From positions 103,509,946-103,573,945 of the forward strand of contig NC_057718.1 in assembly GCF_004010195.1 (NCBI RefSeq): a stretch of DNA of 64,000 nt, given 5' to 3'. Under the pieces are notes generated by a model. That model saw nothing but the letters and a program-made list of their open reading frames with translations. It was not told the origin of the DNA and did no database searches. The translations under genes were made by a program, and so were the position numbers. Below, in pieces: positions 7,860 to 56,218 of this stretch (positions are counted from its first letter, which is position 1; each line of letters starts with the position of its first letter). This DNA comes from Chiloscyllium plagiosum. Taxonomy: Eukaryota.

Positions 7860-8270
7860 GCTGCACCCGATGTGGCCTCCTCTACATTGGGGAGACAGGC
7901 CGCCTACTTGCGGAACGTTTCGGAGAACACCTCTGGGACACCCGGACCAACTAACCCAACCACCCTGTGGCTCAACACTTCAACTCCCCCTCCCACTCCA
8001 TCAAGGACATGCAGGTCCTTGGACTCCTCCATCGCCTATCACCCTCACCTTGACCTCCCTCCACCTATCGCATTTCCAACGTCCCTCCCCCAAGTCCCTC
8101 CTCCCTACCTTTTATCTTAGCCTGCTGGACACATTTTCCTCATTCCTGAAGAAGGGCTCATGCCCGAAATGTCGATTCTCCTGCTCCTTGGATGCTGCCT
8201 GACCTGCTGCACTTTTCCAGCAACACATTTTCGGCTCTGATCTCCAGCGTCTGCAGCCCTCACTTTCTCC
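7860..8270 (+). mobile_element. Penelope-like retroelement 3' fragment (GIY-YIG endonuclease remnant plus pLTR with hammerhead motif)
   Basis: Translates CTRCGLLYIGETGRLLAERFGEH... with an in-frame stop. It is followed by ATTC-CTGAAGA-A-GGGC-tcat-GCCC-GAAATGTC at 8142-8173. Confidence 0.85.
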
Positions 8271-8914
8271 AGGAATGGAAGGAGGACAATTGACCTTGCT
8301 GAGTGCAGATTGGGAAGTGGAAAATCAGCCAGGATCTTGGCTTCTAATTGCTATCACAGGATTAGAAGATAATTACAGATAGGAAAGGCCATTCATCCAT
8401 CCGGGATGACCCATAAAAAACACTCCTACATTCCCTTGCAGGATCCAGTTGTTTTTTGAAATGATTTCAATGTCGACACCTCCGCTATTCCGTCTGAAAA
8501 TCCTTCCTATACTTGATCACTGTTTGTAGTGATCCTGATAGGATGTGATTTGCCTTTTTAATAATTTACTTCCGTGACCCTTTGTCGCTATTCTTTTCAA
8601 AATAAGCCAAACGAAAGAAATGAATTTTTAATATGGTGGATAGAATTCCAATCAGGCTGCTTTGTCCTGGATGGTGTCAATCTTCTTGAGTGTAGTTGGA
8701 GCTGACCCCATCCAGGGCAAGTGGAGAGTATTCCGTCACACTCCTGACTTGTGCCTTGTAGATGATGGATGGGTTTCAGGGAGTCAGGAGGTCAGTTATT
8801 TGCTGCAGCATTTCTAGCCTCTGACCTGCTCTTGCAACTACGGTACATACATGCTCCAGTTATGTATGTCTGTACGGAATGGAGTTTAGGGGGGATATGG
8901 GTTGGGAGTGGAGG

Positions 8915-12240: not shown

Positions 12241-12617
12241 AAAGGAGTTACTAGAATGAAAAAAAAAGCCCCTGGAAATCAAAATATAGGCCCAAAAATC
12301 AAAAGAGAACACTCAAGTGGTGCACTCAGAAAACAAAATAAAAGTCGTTTTTGTCCTTTCAAACCACAATATCCTGCCTGAGGTCTGGAGACCAGAATTA
12401 AATGACCATCAGATTGAGCTTAAATCCATCTGCTCCATCACTTCCTTCCCAATTGTATTCCAAACCCACTTGGATGAAGACCAGAGTTCAATTAATTGAT
12501 CTTTTTAGATTATTTTTAACACTTCTCCACCAGCATAGTGTGCTTTTTTTAACATGGACATGTAGAACACCTTAACAGTCCAAGGTTTCTAATGCTCTCA
12601 GCATCAGGAAAATATTC

Positions 12618-12835
12618 GAGGTAAAAACAATGACTGCAGATGCTGGAAACCAGCTTCTGGATCAGTGGTGCTGGAAGAGCACAGCAATTCAGGCAGCATC
12701 CAACGAGCAGCGAAATCAACGTTTCAGGCAAAAGCCCTTCATCAGGAAATGATGGGCTTTTGCCCGAAACGTCGATTTCGCTGCTCGTCGGATGCTGCCT
12801 GAACTGCTGTGCTCTTCCAGCACCACTAATCCAGA
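12618..12835. mobile_element. Fold-back PLE pLTR insertion with 15-bp TSD
   Basis: Exact direct repeat ATCAGGAAAATATTC at 12603-12617 and 12836-12850, enclosing inverted arms. The minus strand carries the hammerhead core CTGATGA-A-GGGC-tttt-GCCT-GAAACGTT. Confidence 0.85.
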
Positions 12836-13210
12836 ATCAGGAAAATATTCTGGACCCCAAGTCAGTGACGTCACACTTGACCATATGGAACCATGCTGGT
12901 CCCTCACAGATACACGGCTTACTCTTTCTTCGTAAGAGTCAGTACAGGATACTCGAAAGCCAAAGCCCGATACAAATTTCTGGGAGCACTGACTGCACTT
13001 ATTCTCTAGTGGGATGTGAGCATTGCTGGTGTGCCAGCAATTGTTGCCAACCCCTAATTGTTCTTTGGCTGAGCAGCCTGCCTGAACATTTCAGAGAGCG
13101 GTTGAGGGTCAACCACTTTGCTGTGTGTCTGGAGTCACGTGTAGGCCAGACCAGGTAAAGTCGGCAGTTTCCCTCCCTGAAGGACATGAGTGAACCAGAC
13201 AGATTTCTGT

Positions 13211-13340
13211 CTGTCTGATGAAGAGCTTACGCTCGAAACATTTATTCTTCTGCACCTCGGATGCTGCCTGACCGGCTGTGCTTTTCCAGCACCACACTCT
13301 TCGACTCTGATCTCCAGCATCTACAGTCCTCACTTTCTCC
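13211..13340 (+). mobile_element. PLE pLTR fragment starting at a hammerhead core, 11-bp TSD
   Basis: TSD CAGATTTCTGT (13200-13210 and 13341-13351). Core CTGATGA-A-GAGC-ttac-GCTC-GAAAC at 13215-13239. Confidence 0.8.
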
Positions 13341-13427
13341 CAGATTTCTGTGTCAGTCAATTCATGGTCACCATTACCAAGATTAGCTTTACACTCCAGA
13401 ATTTATAAAGTTAATTTAAATTCCACC

Positions 13428-13627
13428 GTTAAAAATCACACCACACCAGGTTATAGTCCAACAGGTTTAATTGGAAGCACACTAGCTTTCGAAGTGACGC
13501 TCCTTTCCTTCATCAGAGCGTTGCTCTGAAAGCTAGTGCTTCCAAATAAACCTGTTGGACTATAACCTGGTGTTGTGTGATTTTTAACTTTGTATACTCC
13601 AGTCCAACACCGGCATCTCCAAATCAC
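13428..13627. mobile_element. Fold-back insertion of a second PLE family, 11-bp TSD
   Basis: TSD TAAATTCCACC (13417-13427 and 13628-13638). Inverted arms gttaaaaatcaca...ctagctttc / gaaagctag...tgtgatttttaac. Minus-strand CTGATGA...GAAAGCTA at 13480-13516. Confidence 0.8.
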
Positions 13628-13798
13628 TAAATTCCACCAATTGCCATGGTAGGATAGGAACCCATGTACACTATTCTGGATCAGTGGTGCTGGAAGAGCA
13701 CAGCAATTCAGGCAGCATCCGAGGACAGGCAAAATCGACGTTTCGGTACCTTTTTACCCATGTACACTACGCATTAGCCTGGGATGTCTGAATAACTA

Positions 13799-31721: not shown

Positions 31722-32240
31722 CATGGAATCCCTTCAGCCCAACAAGTCCTCATTGACCCTCCAAAGATTAATCCACCCAGACCCATTACTCTACATTTAC
31801 CCCTGACTAATGCACCTAACCTACACATCCCTGAATACTATGGGGGAATTTAGCATGACCAATCCACCCTAACCTGCACATCTTTGGACTGTGGGAAGAA
31901 ACCGGAGTAAACCCATGCGGACACGGGGAGAATGTGCAAACTCCACATAGACAGTCACCTGCGGCTGGAATCGAACTCGGGTCCCTAGTGCCATGAGGAG
32001 AAAGTGAGGTCTGCAGATGCTGGAGATCAGAGCTGAAAATGTGTTGCTGGAGAAGCGCAGCAGGTCAGGCAGCATCCAGGGAACAGGAGAATCGCGTTTC
32101 GGGCATAAGAAGAAGGGCTTATGCCCAAAACGTCGATTCTCCTGTTCCCTGGATGCTGCCTGACCTGCTGCTCCAGCAACACATTTTCATCCCTGGTGCC
32201 ATGAGGCAATTGTGCTAACCACTGAGCCACTGTGCCACCC
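31722..32240 (-). mobile_element. HE1-like V-SINE interrupted by a fold-back PLE insertion (31999-32189)
   Basis: TSD TCCCT(A/G)GTGCCATGAGG at 31982-31998 and 32190-32206. The inverted arms meet at a truncated hammerhead (GGGC-ttat-GCCC-AAAACGTC). Confidence 0.85.
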
Positions 32241-37453: not shown

Positions 37454-40067
37454 CCCATATAGTTTTAGCTGCACTAAATCAAAGGGAATGATTCTCTCCA
37501 TTTTTCCATAAAGCCAGTTGCAAACAATAACAGATGGAACTCCACTGATTCATTCATAGATCTTGTGATCAAAAGATGGTGGTGGCCGGGAGGACTCCCC
37601 TTTAAGACAGAGACATGGGGGATTTTCTTCCCTCTTCTTCAGAGCCTTTGGAACTCTCTTCCTCAAAGGACAAGGAAGGCAAAGCCATTGAGTATTTAGT
37701 AGTAGATACAGTCTTGACCATGAGTGAGGTGAAAGGTTATCAGATAGACAGGGGATGGGGCTAGTGAAGTTGTGGCCACAACCAGTTCAGCCATGAGCTT
37801 ACTGAATGGCACAGTGGGCTTGAGGGGCTGAATGGCCTACTCCTGCTCTCCTAATTTGCACTTTCATATTTACAGAAGATAATCTGTTGGATAGTTACAA
37901 ACATTCGTCTCTCTCTCTCTCTCTCTTAGTTAAGGTTAAGTTAAATATCATTTTCCTTTGGAGGAAGCTGCATTTTCCTAAACTTGATCCTGCAAACCAT
38001 AGCAATGTCAGACACACGTGGAGCGAAGTTGCTTTTCTGTTCATAAATGTTGTTAACATTAGCAGTTTTCGAACACCCTAAAGCTAAAATCTTGAACCCT
38101 AATTACATTTCATGAACTATTTGTTATCAATGAATATTGCCTTCACGTGGGGAAACAGCAGCAAATTGAGAAGCGTTCGGAGTATTTCTGCAAACTGAAG
38201 AGTGAAGTCAACCTCCACCTGAGCTGTGAGCCCGTTAGACCATGTTACACCTTCATTTCTGAAGATGTTGCAGCTGATGTGGACTAAGGGTCTGTATAAA
38301 GACTGCAACCTCTAAACTCAAAATCACTTTATATTTCATACATTCTGCTAATTAATTATTTACAGCAAATACAGGGATCACTCAAAATTGCAACAGAACT
38401 GTAGAACAGAGCAAGCAATCAGCCCCATTAAATTTTAGACACAAAAGTTTCTAAATTGTAGATAATTTCAGGTGAAGACATGAGCTGGCTGCTTCTTAAT
38501 ACATTTGTTTAAAAGTCCCTTCACAAACGAAAGGGGAACTTCCGCTCAACTCTACATTAACCAGGGCAGGCAGAAGTGTGCAACTCTCTCCCTCAGAGTT
38601 CTTCAATGGCTGAAATGTTCTTCAATCGAAACTGAAGAAAGATAGACTTTTACAAAACCAAGAACTGTGGGTGCTGCAAATCTGAAACAAAAACAGAAAT
38701 TGCTGGAAAAACTCAGCAGGTCTGGCAACACCTGTGGAGAGAGAAACAGAGTTAACATTTCAGGTCCAGTGACCCTTTATCGGACCCTTTTTAAGAAGTG
38801 GGGAATGTGGGTACAATTATGTTTAGAAGACATTTGGATAAGTACATGAATGGGAAAGGTTTAGAGGGCTATGGGCCAGGAGCAGGCAAGTGGGGCTAGT
38901 TTAGTTTGGGATTATGTTCGACATGGGCTGGTTGGACCGAAGGGTCTGCTTCCATGCTGGATGACTCTATGAAGAGTCACTGGACCCAAAATGATACTCT
39001 GCTTTCACTCTAGAGATAAGAATTTTATTAGGCAAAAGTGTTATGGGTTATGAAACAAGGTGTATGGGACAGCCAAAGTTCAAATCAGTAATGATTTAAC
39101 TGATGGTAGAATAAGCTTAAGAAGCTGATTGTCCTCCTCCTCTAACAGTGTAAGAAGCTGGAGGGCTGAACTGCATCTCCCTGTGTAACAGGTTGGAGGA
39201 GCTGAGTGGTCATTATCAGATTGAAGGGCTGAATGGGTTCTATTCCTGTGGTGCTCCCTGTATTCCAAACATCTTTGTTTTTAGAGGTTAACTGTGCATT
39301 TTCTAGTAAATTATTACATTATTAAACCAAATTGCTGGTGTGTATAAAATTTCAAGCACTTTTGAGTTTAGAGGTTGCAATGTTTTTACCGCAGACCCTG
39401 GGTTCACATCAGCTGAAGTACCTTTGTAAATGAAACTGGAAAATGTCGCCATGCGCCTTTGTCTAACTGGCTCACAGCTCAGGTGGAGATTGACTTTACA
39501 ACTTGAGTACAGGCCCTGGCTCTCAAAGCAAACCTACATTTCTTTTCCATTCCCCTCTGGGAATTAAAGCTTTTTTCCCCTCGCAGCACAACATTTCCAC
39601 TGTTATCAATTGAAGAGCAATAAAGCCATCAACTCCAACAACTTGTGAAAACAAGTCAAGGTCAATAAGTACTTGCATTTTTGTTTATCTTTGGGTGCAT
39701 TTGCTACTGATATTCAATTGGGTAATAAACAGTACGTCTGACAATTGCTCACAGCAAACAAGTGATGTGAAAGCTATCACAGACAAAGGGGTAATCTGCA
39801 GGTAATCAAACAACCCTGTTACAACAATTATAACTTGACGCATTAATTTATGAGACAATTGCCTGCCAATCTTTACCACCTATTGTCAACCTGGTTCTCA
39901 CGAGTGAATCGTTGAGAATTCACGTAACCCAAGCAGCAGACTTTCGAAGACATTTAGCAAGGAGGGATTTAAAGATTTTAAACTGACGCTGAGATATACA
40001 CTGAAGTAAAATCAGGAACTGCGGACACTGGAAATCTGAAATAAAAACAGAAATTGCTGGAGAAACT

Positions 40068-40547
40068 GGGCAGCACGGTGGCTCAGTGGTTAGCACTGCT
40101 GTCTCACAGTACCAGGGTCCTGGGTTCGATTTCACTCCCAGCTGACTGGGTGGAGTTTGCACATTCTCCCTGTGTCTGCGTGGGTTTCCTTTCACAGTCC
40201 AAAAATGTGCAGGTTAGGTGCACTGGCCATGCTTAATTTGTCCATTGTATCCAGGAATGCGTAGGTTAGATGAATCAGTCATGGGAAATGCAGGGTTACG
40301 GGAGAGGGGATGGGTCTGGGTGGGATGCTCTTTGGTGGGTCGGTGTGCACACAATGGGCTGAATGGCCTGCTTCTGGATCAGTGGTGCTGGAAGAGCACA
40401 GCAATTCAGGCAGCATCCAACGAGCTTCGCTGCTCCTCGGATGCTGCCTGAATTGCTGTGCTCTTCCAGCACCACTGATCCAGAATCTGGTTTCCAGCAT
40501 CTGCAGTTATTGTTTTTACCTGAATGGCCTGCAGAGATTCTATGATT
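40068..40547 (+). mobile_element. HE1-like V-SINE interrupted by a fold-back PLE insertion (40372-40519)
   Basis: TSD CTGAATGGCCTGC at 40359-40371 and 40520-40532. Near-perfect inverted arms ttctggatcagtggtgctgg.../...ccagcaccactgatccagaa. Confidence 0.85.
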
Positions 40548-45590: not shown

Positions 45591-46475
45591 CATCCCCTGT
45601 CCTGGGTGTATACGCAGAAAACAAGGAAATCGAGGTCCCAACGTCATTCAATTTGTACGTTCCCAAAGCACAAAGGTGTTTCATTTCTGGTGTCACGCCG
45701 ATCTCCCCCATTTGATTGGCAACAGATCACAAATCTGCCTTTCTCACAATAAGTGGAAACGTACATAAAACCTCAGTGTCCTTTCAAACTGCAGGGAATC
45801 AGCCTTTCAACTTGGGCTAGAAACCAGTGTCAGGAAAGTAGATTGGCTGCTTCTCAGTTCAGGAATGCTCTGAGGCAGCCTTGTCGCGGAGGGGTGAAGA
45901 TGTTCCCATCTTCCTTGTCCTCCTGGCATCATTCACTTGTCCATGAAATCGCTGCAGCCATTACTCTGGCAGGGTTAGAAATGCAGCTCCTTTTTAAAGT
46001 TCAAGCAGAGTTGCTCCAGAGTCTGACAGAGAGCGGCAGATGCTGGCTGGGCTTTATATTGAGGAGCTGAGTTTTCTGCCTTCCATCGCCAGTTTGATTG
46101 AGCCCCCCCCCGTCCTCCTCTCCCTGACCTTTGATGGTCTGTATTATCCTCCATGGGCTTTGAACACACATTATTCAATCAGAAAACACATTGATTTACT
46201 AGTGGTGGTGAAAGATGGAACAAAAATACCACAGGTGACCTGTGTAAAACATTAAAAACGGGCTGAGTTTTGGGGCGGTTGGGGTGCAGTGGTAGTGCCC
46301 TTACCTTTGAATGGACAGGCCTGGGTTCAAGTCCCACCTGCTTCAGAAGTATGTCATAACATTCCTGAACAGATTGATTAAATATCCAAGAGCTGAGTTT
46401 TAGAGAGATCGGTATGGTTGGGGCTGCAGTACGTTATCCCCCCATCACACCACTTTGACATTACTGTTGCACAGC

Positions 46476-46783
46476 TCAGCATGATGGCTCAGTGGTTAAT
46501 ACTGCTGCCTTGCAGCGCCAGGGACCCGAGTTTGATTCCACCCTCGGTCTGTGTGGAGTTTGCACATTCTCTCCGTGTCTGTGTGGGTGTCCTTTCCTCC
46601 CTCAGTCCAAAGATGCGCAGGTTAAGTGCTAAATTGCCGGTAGTATCTAGGGGTGTGCAGGATAGCTGGATTGGCCATGGGAAATGCAGGGCTATAGGGT
46701 GGGTCTGGGTGTGATGCTCTTCGGAGGGGTGGTGTAGACCTGATGGGCTGAATGGCCTGCTTCCACACTGTAGGGATTCTATG
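46476..46783 (+). mobile_element. HE1-like V-SINE
   Basis: tggctcagtggtta head, V-domain and ttccacactgtagggattct tail. Confidence 0.8.
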
Positions 46784-47458: not shown

Positions 47459-47750
47459 ATTAGATTAGATTACTTACAGTGTGGAAACAGGCCCTTCGGC
47501 CCAACAAGTCCACACCGACCCTCCGAAGAGCAACCCACCCAGACCCATTCCCCTACACCTAACACTATGGGTAATTTAGCATGGCCAATTCACCTAACCT
47601 GTGCATCTTTGGACTGAGAGAGGAAAGGAGACCCACACAGACACAGGGAGAATGTGCAAACTCCACACAGACAGTTGCCTGAGGCAGGAATTGAACTCGG
47701 GTCTCTGGCGCTGTGAGGCAGCAGTGCTAACTGCTGTGCCACCGTGCCGC
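47459..47750 (-). mobile_element. HE1-like V-SINE
   Basis: (ATTAG)n tail and near-identical antisense match to 11928-12240. Confidence 0.9.
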
Positions 47751-49408
47751 ACTGAAGGTAAGACACAGAGGAGCCACAATCTCACTGAAAAGCAAAAGCA
47801 GACTTGAGGGGCTGAATGGCCTTCTTCTGTTTCTGACTCCTAGGTGCTGTGCATTTCCAATAGGAGTTAATAGATGCTCTGTAAGTGACTACACTGGAGC
47901 AGATAGGAGAGGCTTCACTGATGGTGAAAGAGTTGATATTACCACAGATTCATCAGAAGGAACCATTAGTGTCACAGTTCATCGTTATTCTTGTATTATG
48001 CAGTCACATCCACAAAATATTTAGCGAGAACTGGGATGGCAAGAGGTAAGCTGCCTGCTGAGAAGCTGTGGCTTTGTTCAGAGCAGGGTCAGGCTGGAGC
48101 TGAAACAAACCTGTGACAACAGCAGCAGTAAAGGTCAATCAAAGACAGGCTAAAGCATCCACATTCTAGGTGACCTTCTAAGCTTGTGACAAATTGCCAT
48201 CAGTCGATGTCTGCTAATGACAACTGCACTCACGTTGATCAATTGTTTTATTTAAAGTGGCCGATAGGCAGCTTACAGGTCAGCCAATTTCACCTCTCCC
48301 TGCACTTGCTCAATGTAAAAAGCTTATTTCTCTGTGTTCGTCGTAAACATTAAATTGTCAGCCAGCTCCTTCTCCTCCTCGTCCCTCTGCCACCGGACCA
48401 CCTCCCACCCCCATGGTCGAGCCCTTCAGGATTCAGCAGCACCTCCAAAAGTACACAGCTTTCTCGATAGATAATGTGAAAGAGGAGAAGTATTCAGCTC
48501 TGCTGATATCACAGCAGTTTCAAAACGGTGATGCAGTGCCAAGCACACCGATGGTCACTCATCAACTGTCTTGTCAACACTATGATTTCTGTGATGTTTA
48601 AGCGTCATCTTTTGTCAGCTCAGTATCTCTGTTGGAACCCTCCAGCGTCACAGCCATTGGGATTTCCCTTTATGTGATACCTGCCTCTTCCCATCAGGAC
48701 TCCAGTTGCATCCATTACTTGATATGCACAGTCCTGTATGATCAAGCTCCATTGTATTTCATCCTGTGATTATCGAGCGAGTGAGTCAAGGCCACAGTCA
48801 ATGCTGTGAGAATCGACTGCAGCAGAGTCCCAGTGAACAGTGAGATCAGTCTGGGTACACGGGTTTAACTCAGGTAACCCTTCTTTTGTTAAGGTACTCT
48901 CACCCACCTACCCCTTCCCGGCTAAGTGCTGACTGGGTCCACCTTTGTTTGCCATTTATATAAATGATTTGGATGAGATGATAGGGGGCACGGTTCGTAA
49001 GTTTGTAGATGACACCAAAATTGGTGGAATAGTGGACCGTGAAGTAGATTATCTAAGATTGCAAAGAGATATTGATCAACTGGGGGTCATGGGGCTGAGG
49101 AGTGGCAGATGGAGTTTAATTTAGATAAATACAAAGTATTGCATTTTTGTAAAACAATCAAGCACAGGACTGACACAACAAGTGGTAGGGTCCTGGGTAG
49201 TGTTACAGAACAGAGAGATCTAGGGGTTCAAGTACACAATCCTTTTAAATTGTGGCACAGGTAGACAGGGTGGTTAAGAAGGCATCTTGCACACTTGCCT
49301 TCTTTGCTCAGACCTTTGAGTATAGGAGTTGGGGGTGTCATGTTGAGGGTGTTGAAACTTTATTGCTGGAACAGCACAGCAGGTCAGGCAGCATCCAGGG
49401 AACAGGAG

Positions 49409-49444
49409 ATTCGACGTTTCGGGCACAGGCCCTTCTTCAGGAAT
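49409..49444 (-). ncRNA. Minimal type I hammerhead ribozyme motif (mirror copy, sense to MEIS1 pre-mRNA)
   Basis: Exact reverse complement of 49712-49747. Confidence 0.75.
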
Positions 49445-49711
49445 GAGCAGAGAGTGTTCAGCAGGAGAAGATAAAAGGTAGGGAGGAGGGACTTGGAGGA
49501 GGGGCGTTGGAAATGTGATAGGTGGAAAGAGGTCAAGGTGAGGGTGATAGGTCGGAGTAGGATGGAGGCGGAGAGGTCAACAAGAAGACTGCAGGTCAGG
49601 AAGGCGACGTGGTCGACGGTGCCCTCCACCGCATCTCCTCCACTTCCAACTCCCCTCCTCCAAGTCCCTCCTCCCTACCTTTTATCTTCTCCTGCTGAAC
49701 ACTCTCTGCTC

Positions 49712-49747
49712 ATTCCTGAAGAAGGGCCTGTGCCCGAAACGTCGAAT
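49712..49747 (+). ncRNA. Minimal type I hammerhead ribozyme motif (PLE-associated)
   Basis: ATTC-CTGAAGA-A-GGGC-ctgt-GCCC-GAA-ACGT-C|GAAT. Stem I is AUUC/GAAU, the core is CUGANGA...GAAA, stem II is GGGC/GCCC, stem III is the palindrome ACGU and the cleavage triplet is GUC. Confidence 0.75.
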
Positions 49748-50382
49748 CTCCTGTTCCCTGGATGCTGCCTGACCTGCTGTGCTGTTCCAGCAATAAAGTT
49801 TCAACTTTGATCTCCAGCATCTGCAGACCTCACTTTCTCCTCGAAGATGTCATGTTGAGGTTCTACAGGGCTTTAGTGAGGCTTCTTCTGGAATACTGTG
49901 TCCCGTTCTGGTTGGTCTGTTGCAGAAAGGATATTATTAAGCTGGAGAGGGTGCAGAAGAGATTTACCAGGATGTTGCCAGGAAGGGAGGGTTTGAGTTA
50001 TAAAAATAGATTGGAAAGACTAATTCCAAGATTGGGACATTTTTCACTGGAGTGCAGGAGATTAAGGGGTAAGCTTAGAGAGGTTTATAAAATCATGAGG
50101 GGCATAGATAAAGAGAATGGCAAGAGTCTGATCCCTGGGGTGAGTGAGTTCAAAACTAGGGGGCAGATTTTCAAGGTGAGAGGAGAAAGATTTAAAAAGG
50201 ACATGAGGTGCAACTCCTTTACAGAGAGAATGGTTTGTGTGTGGAATGAGGAGGAGGTGGAGAATGTGGGTGCAATTACATTTAAAACATGTTTGGATAA
50301 GTACATGAATAGGAAAAAGATATGGACCAAGTGCAGGCAAGTGGCACTAGTTTAGTTTGGGATTACATCAGAACGGACTGGT

Positions 50383-51886
50383 TAATAGACAATAGACAAT
50401 AGGTGCAGGAGTAGGCCATTCTGCCCTTCGAGCCTGCACCACCATTCATTATGATCATGGCTGATCATCCTTAATCAGTATCCTGTTCCTGCCTTATCTC
50501 CATAACCCTTGAGAGCTCTATCCAACTCTTTCTTAAACGAATCCAGAGACTGGGCCTCCACTGCCCTCTGGGGCAGAGCATTCCACACAGCCACCACTCT
50601 CTGGGTGAAGAAGTCTCTCCTCATCTCTGTCCTAAATGGCCTACTCCTTATTTTTAAGCTGTGTCCTCTGGTTCGGGACTGACCCATCAGCAGAAACTTG
50701 TTTCCTGCCTCCAGAGTGTCCAATCCTTTAATAATCTTATATGTCTCAATCAGATCCCCTCTCAGTCTTCTAAACTCAAGGGTATACAAGCCCAGTCACT
50801 CCAATCTTTCAACATAAGATAGTCCCGCCATTCCAGGAATTTACCTTGTGTACCTACGCTGCACTCCCTCAATAGCCAGAATGTCTTTCCTCAAATTTGG
50901 AGACCAGAAATGCACACAATATTCCAGGTACGGTCTCACCAGGGCCCTGTACAGCTGCAGAAGAACCTCTTTGCTTCTATACTCAATCCATCTTGTTATG
51001 AAGGCCAGCATGCTATTAGCTTTCCTCACTACCTGCTGTACCTGCATGCTTACCTTCATTGACTGGTGTACAAGAACACTCAGATCTCTTTGTACAGCCC
51101 CTATACTAACTTGACTCCATTTAGGTAGTAATCTGCCTTCCTGTTCTTGCCACCAAAGTGGATAACCATACATTTATCCACATTAAATTGCATCTGCCAT
51201 GCATCTCTCCACTCACCTAACCTGTCNNNNNNNNNNNNNNNNNNNNNNNNNNNNNNNNNNNNNNNNNNNNNNNNNNNNNNNNNNNNNNNNNNNNNNNNNN
51301 NNNNNNNNNNNNNNNNNNNNNNNNNNNNNNNNNNNNNNNNNNNNNNNNNNNNNNNNNNNNNNNNNNNNNNNNNNNNNNNNNNNNNNNNNNNNNNNNNNNN
51401 NNNNNNGGACTTTATCAAAAGCTTTTTGAAAGTCCAGGTACACTACATCTACTGGATCTCCCTTGTCCGTCTTCAGAGTTACATCCCCCAAACATTCCAG
51501 GAGATTAGTCAAGCATGATTTCCCCTTCATAAATCCATGCTGACTCTGACTTATCCTGTTACTACTATCCAGATGTGTCGTAATTTCATCCTTTATAATT
51601 GACTCCAGCATCTTTCCCACCACTGAGGTCAGACTAACTGGTCTATAATTTCCTGCTTTCTCTCTCGCTCCTTTCTTAAAAAGTGGTACAACATTAGCCA
51701 CCCTCCAGTCCGCAGGAACTGATCCCGAATCTATCGAACTCTGGAAAATAATCACCAACTCATCCACGATTTCTAGAGCCACCTCCTTCAGTACCCTGGG
51801 ATGTAGACCATCAGGCCCCGGGGACTTATCAGCCTTCAGACCTAACAGTCTCTCCAACACCAATTCCTGGCAAATATAAATTCCCC
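50383..51886 (-). mobile_element. Young 5'-truncated CR1 LINE (RT region to 3' end) containing an assembly gap
   Basis: ORFs KSPGPDGLHPRVLKE...NYRPVSLTSVVGKMLE...QHGFMKGKSCLTNL...YLDFQKAFDKV, LYRALVRPYLEYCVHFWSP and LEFRRLRGDLIETYKI. (AATAGAC)n tail at 50383-50402. Confidence 0.95.
51227..51406. other. Assembly gap (N run) inside the CR1
   Basis: Run of N. Confidence 1.
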
Positions 51887-54885: not shown

Positions 54886-55002
54886 TCTAATGAGTGTTTC
54901 TCATTGTCAGATGACCAGTGTATTGGCCATTAGACCCAATGGGCTGTGAGGTTTGTGTATCAGAGCGTTATCAAACAGACGGGCAATTGTTTAGTTTCTT
55001 AC

Positions 55003-55111: not shown

Positions 55112-55595
55112 CTGAAGGAGGGAATGACACGGATAAGGGAAAATGAAAGCTGACAGCAAAACCTCCACATCACAATTTACCCCAGGCACACAAAGTACGG
55201 GGAGAACACCTTTCCTGTTTTCGGGTGGCACCGCGTACAGACCTTCATGAGAATATCGAAATGGCACTGCCTCTGAGCGGAATTCATTCGTTCATAGGAA
55301 GTGAGCGTAACAGGCTGGCCCACTATTTGATGCCCAGCCCTAACTGCCCCAGGACTGAGTGGCTCACTGGGCCATTTCAGAGGGCATTTAGAGTCAATCC
55401 CTAGTGACCTCAAGACCATATGAAGTAGAAACAGGAGTAAACCATTCACCCCAATTGCTGTGGGCCACATGTTGGCCAGGCTGCTTGAGCAGTGCAGATT
55501 TCTTTCGCTAAAAGGGGCATTAGTGAACCATGTGGACTTTCACAACAATCGACAGCAATTGCGCTCTTACTGAGACTAGTCTGAATATTTCAGAT

Positions 55596-56218
55596 CAGAG
55601 TCCAGATTAGAGTGGTGCTGGAAAAGCACAGCAAGTCAGGCAGCATCTGAGGAGCAGGAGAATCAATGTTTTGGGCAAAAGCCCTTCATCAGGAACAGAG
55701 GCAGAGAGCCTGAAGGGTGGAGAGGTAAATGAGAGGGGAGAAAGTAGCATGGAGTACAATAGGTGACTCCAGGCGTCGGGTGGTGAGGGAGCGGCGGTGA
55801 AGGAGGCCCAGGACCTCCATGTCCTCAGCAGAGTGGGAGGGGGAGTTGAAATGTTGGGCCACGGGGCGGTGTGGTTGATTGGTGCAGGTGTCCCGGAGAT
55901 GTTCCCTAAAGCGCTCTGCGAGGAGGCGCCCAGTCTCCCCAATGTAGAGGAGACTGCACCGGGAGCAACGGATACAATAAGTGATATTGGTGGATGTGCA
56001 GGTGAAACTTTGATGGATGTGGAAGGCTCCTTTGGGGTCTTGGATGGAGGTGAGGGAGGAGGTGTGGGCGCAGGTTTTGCAATTCCTGCAGTGGCATGGG
56101 AGGGTGTGTTGTTGGGGGGCGTGGACCTGACCAGGTAGTCACGAGGGAACGGTCTTTGCGGAAATCGGAAATGGATGGGGAGGGAAATATATCCTGGTGG
56201 TGGGGTCCGTTTGGAGGT
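55596..56218 (-). mobile_element. Penelope-like retroelement 3' fragment (Zn-finger, GIY-YIG endonuclease, pLTR) inserted in a SINE family B copy (~55285-56335)
   Basis: Minus strand translates CHCRNCKTC...NITYCIRCSRCSLLYIGETGRLLAERFREH...VAQHFNSPSH. A decayed hammerhead CTGATGA-A-GGGC-tttt-GCCC-AAAAC lies at ~55666-55692. Confidence 0.9.

Follow-up and report, generated by a model that had tools for sequence, protein, structure and literature searches.

A truncated head-to-head Penelope-like insertion with two opposed hammerhead motifs, probably inert, in a shark MEIS1 intron

We propose that a 499-bp insert in the shark MEIS1 gene is very probably a truncated head-to-head unit of a high-copy Penelope-like retroelement (PLE), which likely landed in one recent event and is likely inert in the MEIS1 pre-mRNA. 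Within the window (the 64-kb stretch of DNA that was analysed as a whole), the insert forms a three-piece mosaic of an inverted pseudo-LTR, 43 nt of the element ORF, and a forward pseudo-LTR with its tail. The combination of fold-back, TSD and tail is an already published landing pattern of PLEs, of which this insert is a clean recent example. The mosaic spacer, the one-sided tail and the LINE setting are details beyond a first, sequence-only reading of the same DNA.

The TSD of 13 bp (TGTCATGTTGAGG) is exact at 49336-49348 and 49848-49860 and encloses 499 bp (49349-49847), matching the insert of roughly 500 bp with a 13-bp TSD that had been read initially. The inverted arms (49351-49515 and 49641-49805) measure 165 nt each, stand 125 nt apart and are complementary at 163 of 165 positions, with mismatches at 49643 and 49651. 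Since the first of these mismatches falls inside the ORF-derived junction piece, the initial estimate of arms of about 160 bp differing at about one position was fair. Near-identical arms and intact CpGs also support the view that the insertion is young. All features are collected in Table 1.

Table 1. Features of the insert, its host gene and the other fold-backs in the window
Feature	Position	Strand	Remark
Left TSD (13 bp)	49336..49348	+	exact repeat of 49848-49860
GT, two additional bases separating the TSD from the inverted arm	49349..49350		untemplated or priming slip (putative origin)
Piece A, inverted 5'-truncated pseudo-LTR, tail-less, MEIS1-sense	49351..49606	-	87% to copy 8035-8232
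Piece B, 43 nt of element ORF (DVVDGALHRISSTS), between RT core and endonuclease	49605..49647	+	
Piece C, forward pseudo-LTR arm	49644..49805	+	inverted repeat; family contigs diverge before 49644
Tail, 42 nt, on one arm only	49806..49847	+	from sequence
Right TSD	49848..49860	+	junction also in X2 and X7 contigs
Minimal hammerhead motif, MEIS1-antisense	49712..49747	+	C17 49743; predicted site; descriptor match
Minimal hammerhead motif, MEIS1-sense	49444-49409	-	C17 49413; predicted site; descriptor match
LINE ORF2 remnant hosting the insert	48940..50330	+	flanks joined after removal of the insert read as one decayed ORF
MEIS1 exon upstream of insert	55111-55003	-	AG/GT ends; donor at 55002
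MEIS1 exon downstream of insert (homeodomain start)	15822-15677	-	AG/GT ends
TSD-bounded fold-back	12603-12850		exact 15-bp TSD; sense hammerhead partly covered by opposite arm
TSD-bounded fold-back	13417-13638		exact 11-bp TSD; sense hammerhead partly covered by opposite arm
TSD-bounded fold-back	31988-32206		exact 11-bp TSD; same MEIS1 intron; without whole hammerhead
TSD-bounded fold-back	40359-40532		exact 13-bp TSD; same MEIS1 intron; without whole hammerhead

For the limits of the pieces, the right arm and right flank (49516-50400) served as a query against the contig sets of three DNA runs (X1, X2 and X7) and roughly 2% of a single-cell RNA run (X21), which are 4 of the 24 runs listed. 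At the left end, TGTTGA is present in both the TSD and the end of the arm, which bears on the origin of the extra GT. Bases 49516-49606 extend the inverted pseudo-LTR, matching a copy at 8035-8071, and family contigs diverge behind 49606. Ten of the 14 amino acids encoded by piece B are identical to residues 155-168 of the protein P0002, a score that 1 in 300 shuffles attained; upstream of 49605, contigs in all three DNA runs run on into sequence encoding the preceding ORF residues. Piece B overlaps piece A by 2 nt and, as we infer, piece C by 4 nt. The contig and read ends of other family copies cluster at 49840-49842 and 49848, which identifies 49806-49847 as the tail end of the family.

Of the 16 relatives that a protein search yielded, the best two belong to Chiloscyllium punctatum, and the longer ones have RT as well as GIY-YIG matches. 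In the homologues P0001, P0003 and P0010, GIY-YIG is accompanied by RVT_1 below the cut-off, and a GIY-YIG domain at 55689-56138, in the copy 55607-56216, lies above the Pfam cut-off. The source family, as read from family copies and homologues, encodes RT with GIY-YIG at the C-terminus in a single ORF, of which the insert keeps 43 nt. The GIY-YIG domain is preceded by a CX4CX2C linker (CHCRNCKTC in 55689-56138, CHRRNCKTC in P0001), which is absent from P0002, a protein that looks internally deleted there. A CX2-5CxxC linker is a feature of the Neptune clade and of Nematis too. The insert itself has the EN+ PLE features of an inverted 5'-truncated pseudo-LTR beside a forward copy, a 42-nt tail and a 13-bp TSD. 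Judged from these sequences, the source is an endonuclease-bearing Penelope-like family with a Neptune/Nematis-type linker, and the Penelope-like origin first assigned to the insert is upheld. Between 16,911 and 25,704 contigs matched per DNA run (LINE flank included, and with the summed depth not read as copy number), so the family is very abundant.

Two copies in the window show further traits of the family. The copy 7862-8270 (+) joins an endonuclease piece (91.5% to P0002, 59 aa) to an end that is 85-87% like the arms; with nothing between its GIY-YIG piece and the pseudo-LTR, it shows another internal jump or deletion, similar to that of the insert. The copy 55607-56216 (-) is a lone, MEIS1-sense PLE 3' end about 500 nt upstream of the exon, and its hammerhead core is decayed.

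In the sequence of events that we propose, the GIY-YIG endonuclease of the element would have made a 13-bp staggered cut, and both ends of the cut would have primed reverse transcription, the two start sites on the element RNA lying about 42 nt from each other. One cDNA may have jumped at a short microhomology from the pseudo-LTR into the ORF, at least ~0.6 kb further 5', a distance estimated from the P0002 ORF, which runs about 190 aa past piece B. The far ends of the two cDNAs would have been joined at the 2-nt overlap. The hammerheads, lying within 100 nt of the arm ends, would be passengers copied twice. The offset of ~42 nt between the arms fits the two-start-site model of the lizard element, whose protein is reported to cut and extend both strands in vitro, with two start sites whose interval equals the tail (PMC11167929). 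The alternative is self-priming on an antisense template, as Arkhipova et al. (PMC3846280) proposed; a palindrome is absent from the junction in the insert. Both hammerheads would be copied in either mechanism because they are near the ends.

Several published insertions resemble this one. According to Craig et al. (PMC8557442), PLE insertions usually have an inverted 5'-truncated copy and a tail of 30-40 bp, and Arkhipova et al. (PMC3846280) describe inverted pLTRs, mostly head-to-head, with TSDs of 8-10 bp and microhomology deletions. The insert shares with these EN+ units the head-to-head arrangement, the tail on one side, a short TSD and a microhomology-bounded internal deletion. It differs from what these reports describe in having lost nearly the whole ORF but for 43 nt, in a TSD of 13 bp compared with 8-10 bp in the rotifer, in a tail of 42 nt, and in having a 125-nt unpaired spacer and no palindrome at the inversion. 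With the Anolis Poseidon element PAc (PMC11167929) it has in common a ribozyme in the pseudo-LTR, and its 42-nt arm offset fits the two RT start sites that set the tail in that element; in contrast to the Poseidon build, the shark family has a CX4CX2C linker before GIY-YIG, of the Neptune/Nematis type (PMC8557442).

The placement of the insert within a MEIS1 intron is borne out by two minus-strand exons that match Meis1 proteins. For the downstream exon, identity is 100% with the Meis1-named proteins of five chondrichthyans and 98% with Meis2 proteins. The upstream exon shows no difference from Chiloscyllium plagiosum Meis1b over 38 aa, whereas three Meis2 proteins reach 72-74% identity in the part that aligns. 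A comparison of the MEIS exon with the ESM Atlas gave no informative match. The intron spans 39.2 kb, and the insert starts 5.1 kb past the donor. Since MEIS1 lies on the minus strand, the ribozyme in pre-mRNA sense is the left one, with its site after C49413 and not after C49743. The sequence-only reading had named C49743: a plus-strand motif does exist there, but that strand is antisense to MEIS1. From the sense site it is 33.6 kb to the intron acceptor.

The insert interrupts a LINE remnant, which we take to be of CR1 type; once its flanks are joined, the ORF2 shows a one-base frameshift beside the TSD. A related LINE remnant at 51410-51962 matches Pfam RVT_1. A stop-free frame of 211 codons (49720-50355, +) runs from the PLE arm and tail across the TSD into the end of the LINE ORF2, probably by chance. 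Elsewhere in the same intron, an inverted pair (46472-46781 and 47466-47754; ~300 bp per side, 77-93% in three blocks) contains a SINE-like repeat and is another possible long RNA duplex. Three colinear inverted blocks, ~1.0-1.2 kb apart, at 38202-38342 and 39341-39499 resemble old DNA transposon ends, and a decayed PLE pair lies between them (38660-39011).

Each arm holds an identical 36-nt motif with stem I AUUC/GAAU, CUGAAGA, one extra A, stem II GGGC/GCCC closed by the loop CUGU, GAAA, a loop-less palindrome ACGU as stem III, and a GUC site. A strict minimal-hammerhead descriptor (core, helix II, palindromic 15.2-16.2, NUH, 4-bp helix I) found just these two motifs in the 64-kb window and none in 100 dinucleotide-shuffled windows. 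Two complete type I minimal hammerheads, one per arm, had been claimed from the start, and the claim stands; all sequence features of the minimal, dimer-type form are present. As in the minimal hammerheads described from metazoan PLEs (PMC4209133), the motif is of type I with a 4-bp helix I, an extra nucleotide between 9 and 10.1, G10.1-C11.1, a palindromic 15.2-16.2 and no loop 3. Opposite-strand pairs 100-700 bp apart are reported there, and the motif centres of the insert are 297 bp apart. The insert differs in its helix II of 4 bp, and sharks are not named in the available text of that study, the supplements of which may list them.

The sequence-only reading had looked to covariance models for confirmation, which did not come: with Rfam, the 64-kb window had no match that reached gathering score, and the 19 matches obtained for 49300-49900 at E<=10 included no hammerhead family. 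Such a miss would be expected because the motif is without stem III. The miRNA-precursor matches in Rfam were rejected, being far below gathering score and reflecting the hairpin. Exact-pattern scans in metagenome contigs and in viral contigs returned no match in either. We also rejected a non-LTR retrozyme, as the two motifs are on opposite strands and there is no tandem unit.

Among family copies of at least 94% identity, no position of the core or stem II varied at 5%, in contrast to loop positions 49728 and 49730 (two of the four) and helix I position 49746. This conservation next to a variable loop suggests that the motif is probably functional in the source elements. Roughly half of the depth of the family in the DNA runs has T at 49746, where it breaks one helix I pair; the copy in the insert is fully paired. 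Both arms additionally carry AATAAA, at 49364-49359 (-) and 49792-49797 (+), and the copies 8130-8272, 13200-13345 and 31995-32109 read otherwise at this position. The sense-arm copy might serve MEIS1 as a poly(A) signal within the intron and is likewise buried in the hairpin.

The initial reading went on to suggest that a self-silencing geometry could account for the tolerance of such inserts in MEIS1. In the form weighed here, a sense hammerhead, paired with another copy or with element protein, would cut the pre-mRNA, and selection would keep intronic inserts mainly when the antisense arm masks it. We consider this very unlikely, although its structural premises are supported. The antisense arm is transcribed first, as had been stated, and folding predicts that the sense motif is completely buried in a 165-bp hairpin, the pre-mRNA strand folding to the whole hairpin at -395.6 kcal/mol. 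In growing transcripts the sense motif paired with the earlier antisense arm with a mean P of 0.95-1.0 at each of six prefixes, and stem II had P < 1e-14, as calculated by equilibrium and not kinetic folding. The distance of the site from the next exon would leave time to cleave, and antisense blocking of a fast intronic ribozyme was reported to raise mouse Cpeb3 mRNA (PMC10919898). The mammalian CPEB3 ribozyme is comparable to the motif studied here as a motif of self-cleaving type within a long intron, open to blocking by an antisense partner. It is, however, a single-copy HDV-type ribozyme with a half-life of ~2-3 min (PMC10919898), whereas the shark insert is a recent copy of a very abundant repeat, and its motif needs a partner.

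On its own, the motif would in any case barely cleave, since only a partner can provide it with a stem III. In the isolated arm stem II is predicted to form (P 0.85-0.99) and stem I to be rare (P 0.004-0.15), and stem III cannot close; the dimer geometry reaches -13.1 kcal/mol compared with -18.3 for the best alternative dimer, in energy models that omit the catalytic core. In published tests (PMC4209133), the monomer was not cleaved and the dimer only weakly. The lizard PLE ribozyme cleaved only with the element protein, and RNA-seq reads with an end at its site were absent (PMC11167929). A lone minimal hammerhead that lacks stem III and was inactive alone in such tests makes masking likely redundant, on this analysis. 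Moreover, reporter work that PMC2995048 and PMC10919898 cite found splicing to go ahead in introns cleaved by slow hammerheads and to be blocked by fast ribozymes. Among the titles returned by literature searches on masking and on shark PLE inversions, which took in few subscription papers, none concerned masking of PLE hammerheads.

The other copies in the window also speak to this question. Four further fold-backs, from at least three PLE subfamilies and with diverged arms, are bounded by exact TSDs, and the geometry arises with or without a whole hammerhead. Lone family ends lean towards the antisense orientation, as masking would have it (7 of 10; two-sided binomial p 0.34), also among those with both core halves recognisable (6 of 7; two-sided binomial p 0.125), and the only strictly intact sense hammerhead in the 64 kb is the masked one in the insert. 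For comparison, LINE pieces stand at 13 + and 11 -, and SINE pieces at 5 + and 6 -, in rough blast-based counts. The lean is not significant, its numbers being too small to decide, and it would be equally expected without any ribozyme because the sense arm carries AATAAA. Furthermore, a lone sense copy (55592-55720) has persisted in MEIS1, with CpG-type decay of its core like that of the antisense copies. In view of activity, splicing, geometry and the persistence of an unmasked copy, the claim of tolerance by masking is not supported, and we retain the reading of passenger motifs in a likely inert insert.

A related possibility, to which we give a similarly slim chance, is that in shark genomes, with their very large load of intact Penelope hammerheads, intronic sense copies cleave the pre-mRNA through pairing among themselves or with RNA and protein of the element, so that selection purges lone sense copies and spares fold-backs. 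A preprint (10.64898/2026.07.22.740005) reports hammerhead retrozymes to be depleted from Xenopus introns.

The chance is slimmer still that the hairpin matters, if at all, as generic dsRNA (through editing or family small RNA) or by burying AATAAA, with the ribozyme irrelevant. A near-perfect duplex of 165 bp and the AATAAA at 49364-49359 on the pre-mRNA strand would suit this reading, and small RNAs from Penelope copies have been described in a rotifer (PMC3846280). In the RNA run X21, the 657 matching reads came from both strands; read starts or ends piled up nowhere, and no cluster of edits was seen, a weak test in a poly(A) single-cell library of a family with many copies. On the other side, of the seven changes of A>G or T>C type listed for the insert, six (three of four and three of three, respectively) are also common in the DNA runs, as paralog variants. 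Position 49684 alone was RNA-enriched (5 of 75 reads), and it stands beside three RNA-only changes of other kinds. The same intron, moreover, has other long inverted pairs.

The tail-TSD-flank junction was found with no difference in contigs of two of the three DNA runs (X2 and X7), with just 24-26 letters on the element side, which is below our 31-letter rule; X2 and X7 are two samples from two studies, one of which may be the source of the assembly. An opposite-strand joint, 49516/49644, was seen in all four runs and was rejected as proof of the fold-back, as an ordinary contiguous pseudo-LTR gives the same joint. That the inverted arm is an assembly artefact, as three N gaps in the window, the absence of the inversion junction among the contigs listed and the reported trouble of short-read assembly with PLE inversions (PMC8557442) might suggest, is highly improbable given the exact TSD on both sides, the one-sided tail of published size, the mosaic spacer, which is unique and has clean microhomologies, the presence of the right junction in two samples, and four further fold-backs that are built alike and have diverged arms.

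Were masking to act as a filter after all, the fold-back would act as a muffler built into the element, allowing it to colonise genes by burying both its ribozyme and its poly(A) signal, and this would show that host pre-mRNA is cut by PLE hammerheads in vivo. As a passenger-bearing, likely inert unit, the insert has a modest and mechanistic value: this 499-bp fossil shows the one-sided tail, the template jump into the ORF and the head-to-head join together, and its readable parts fit the two-start-site model.
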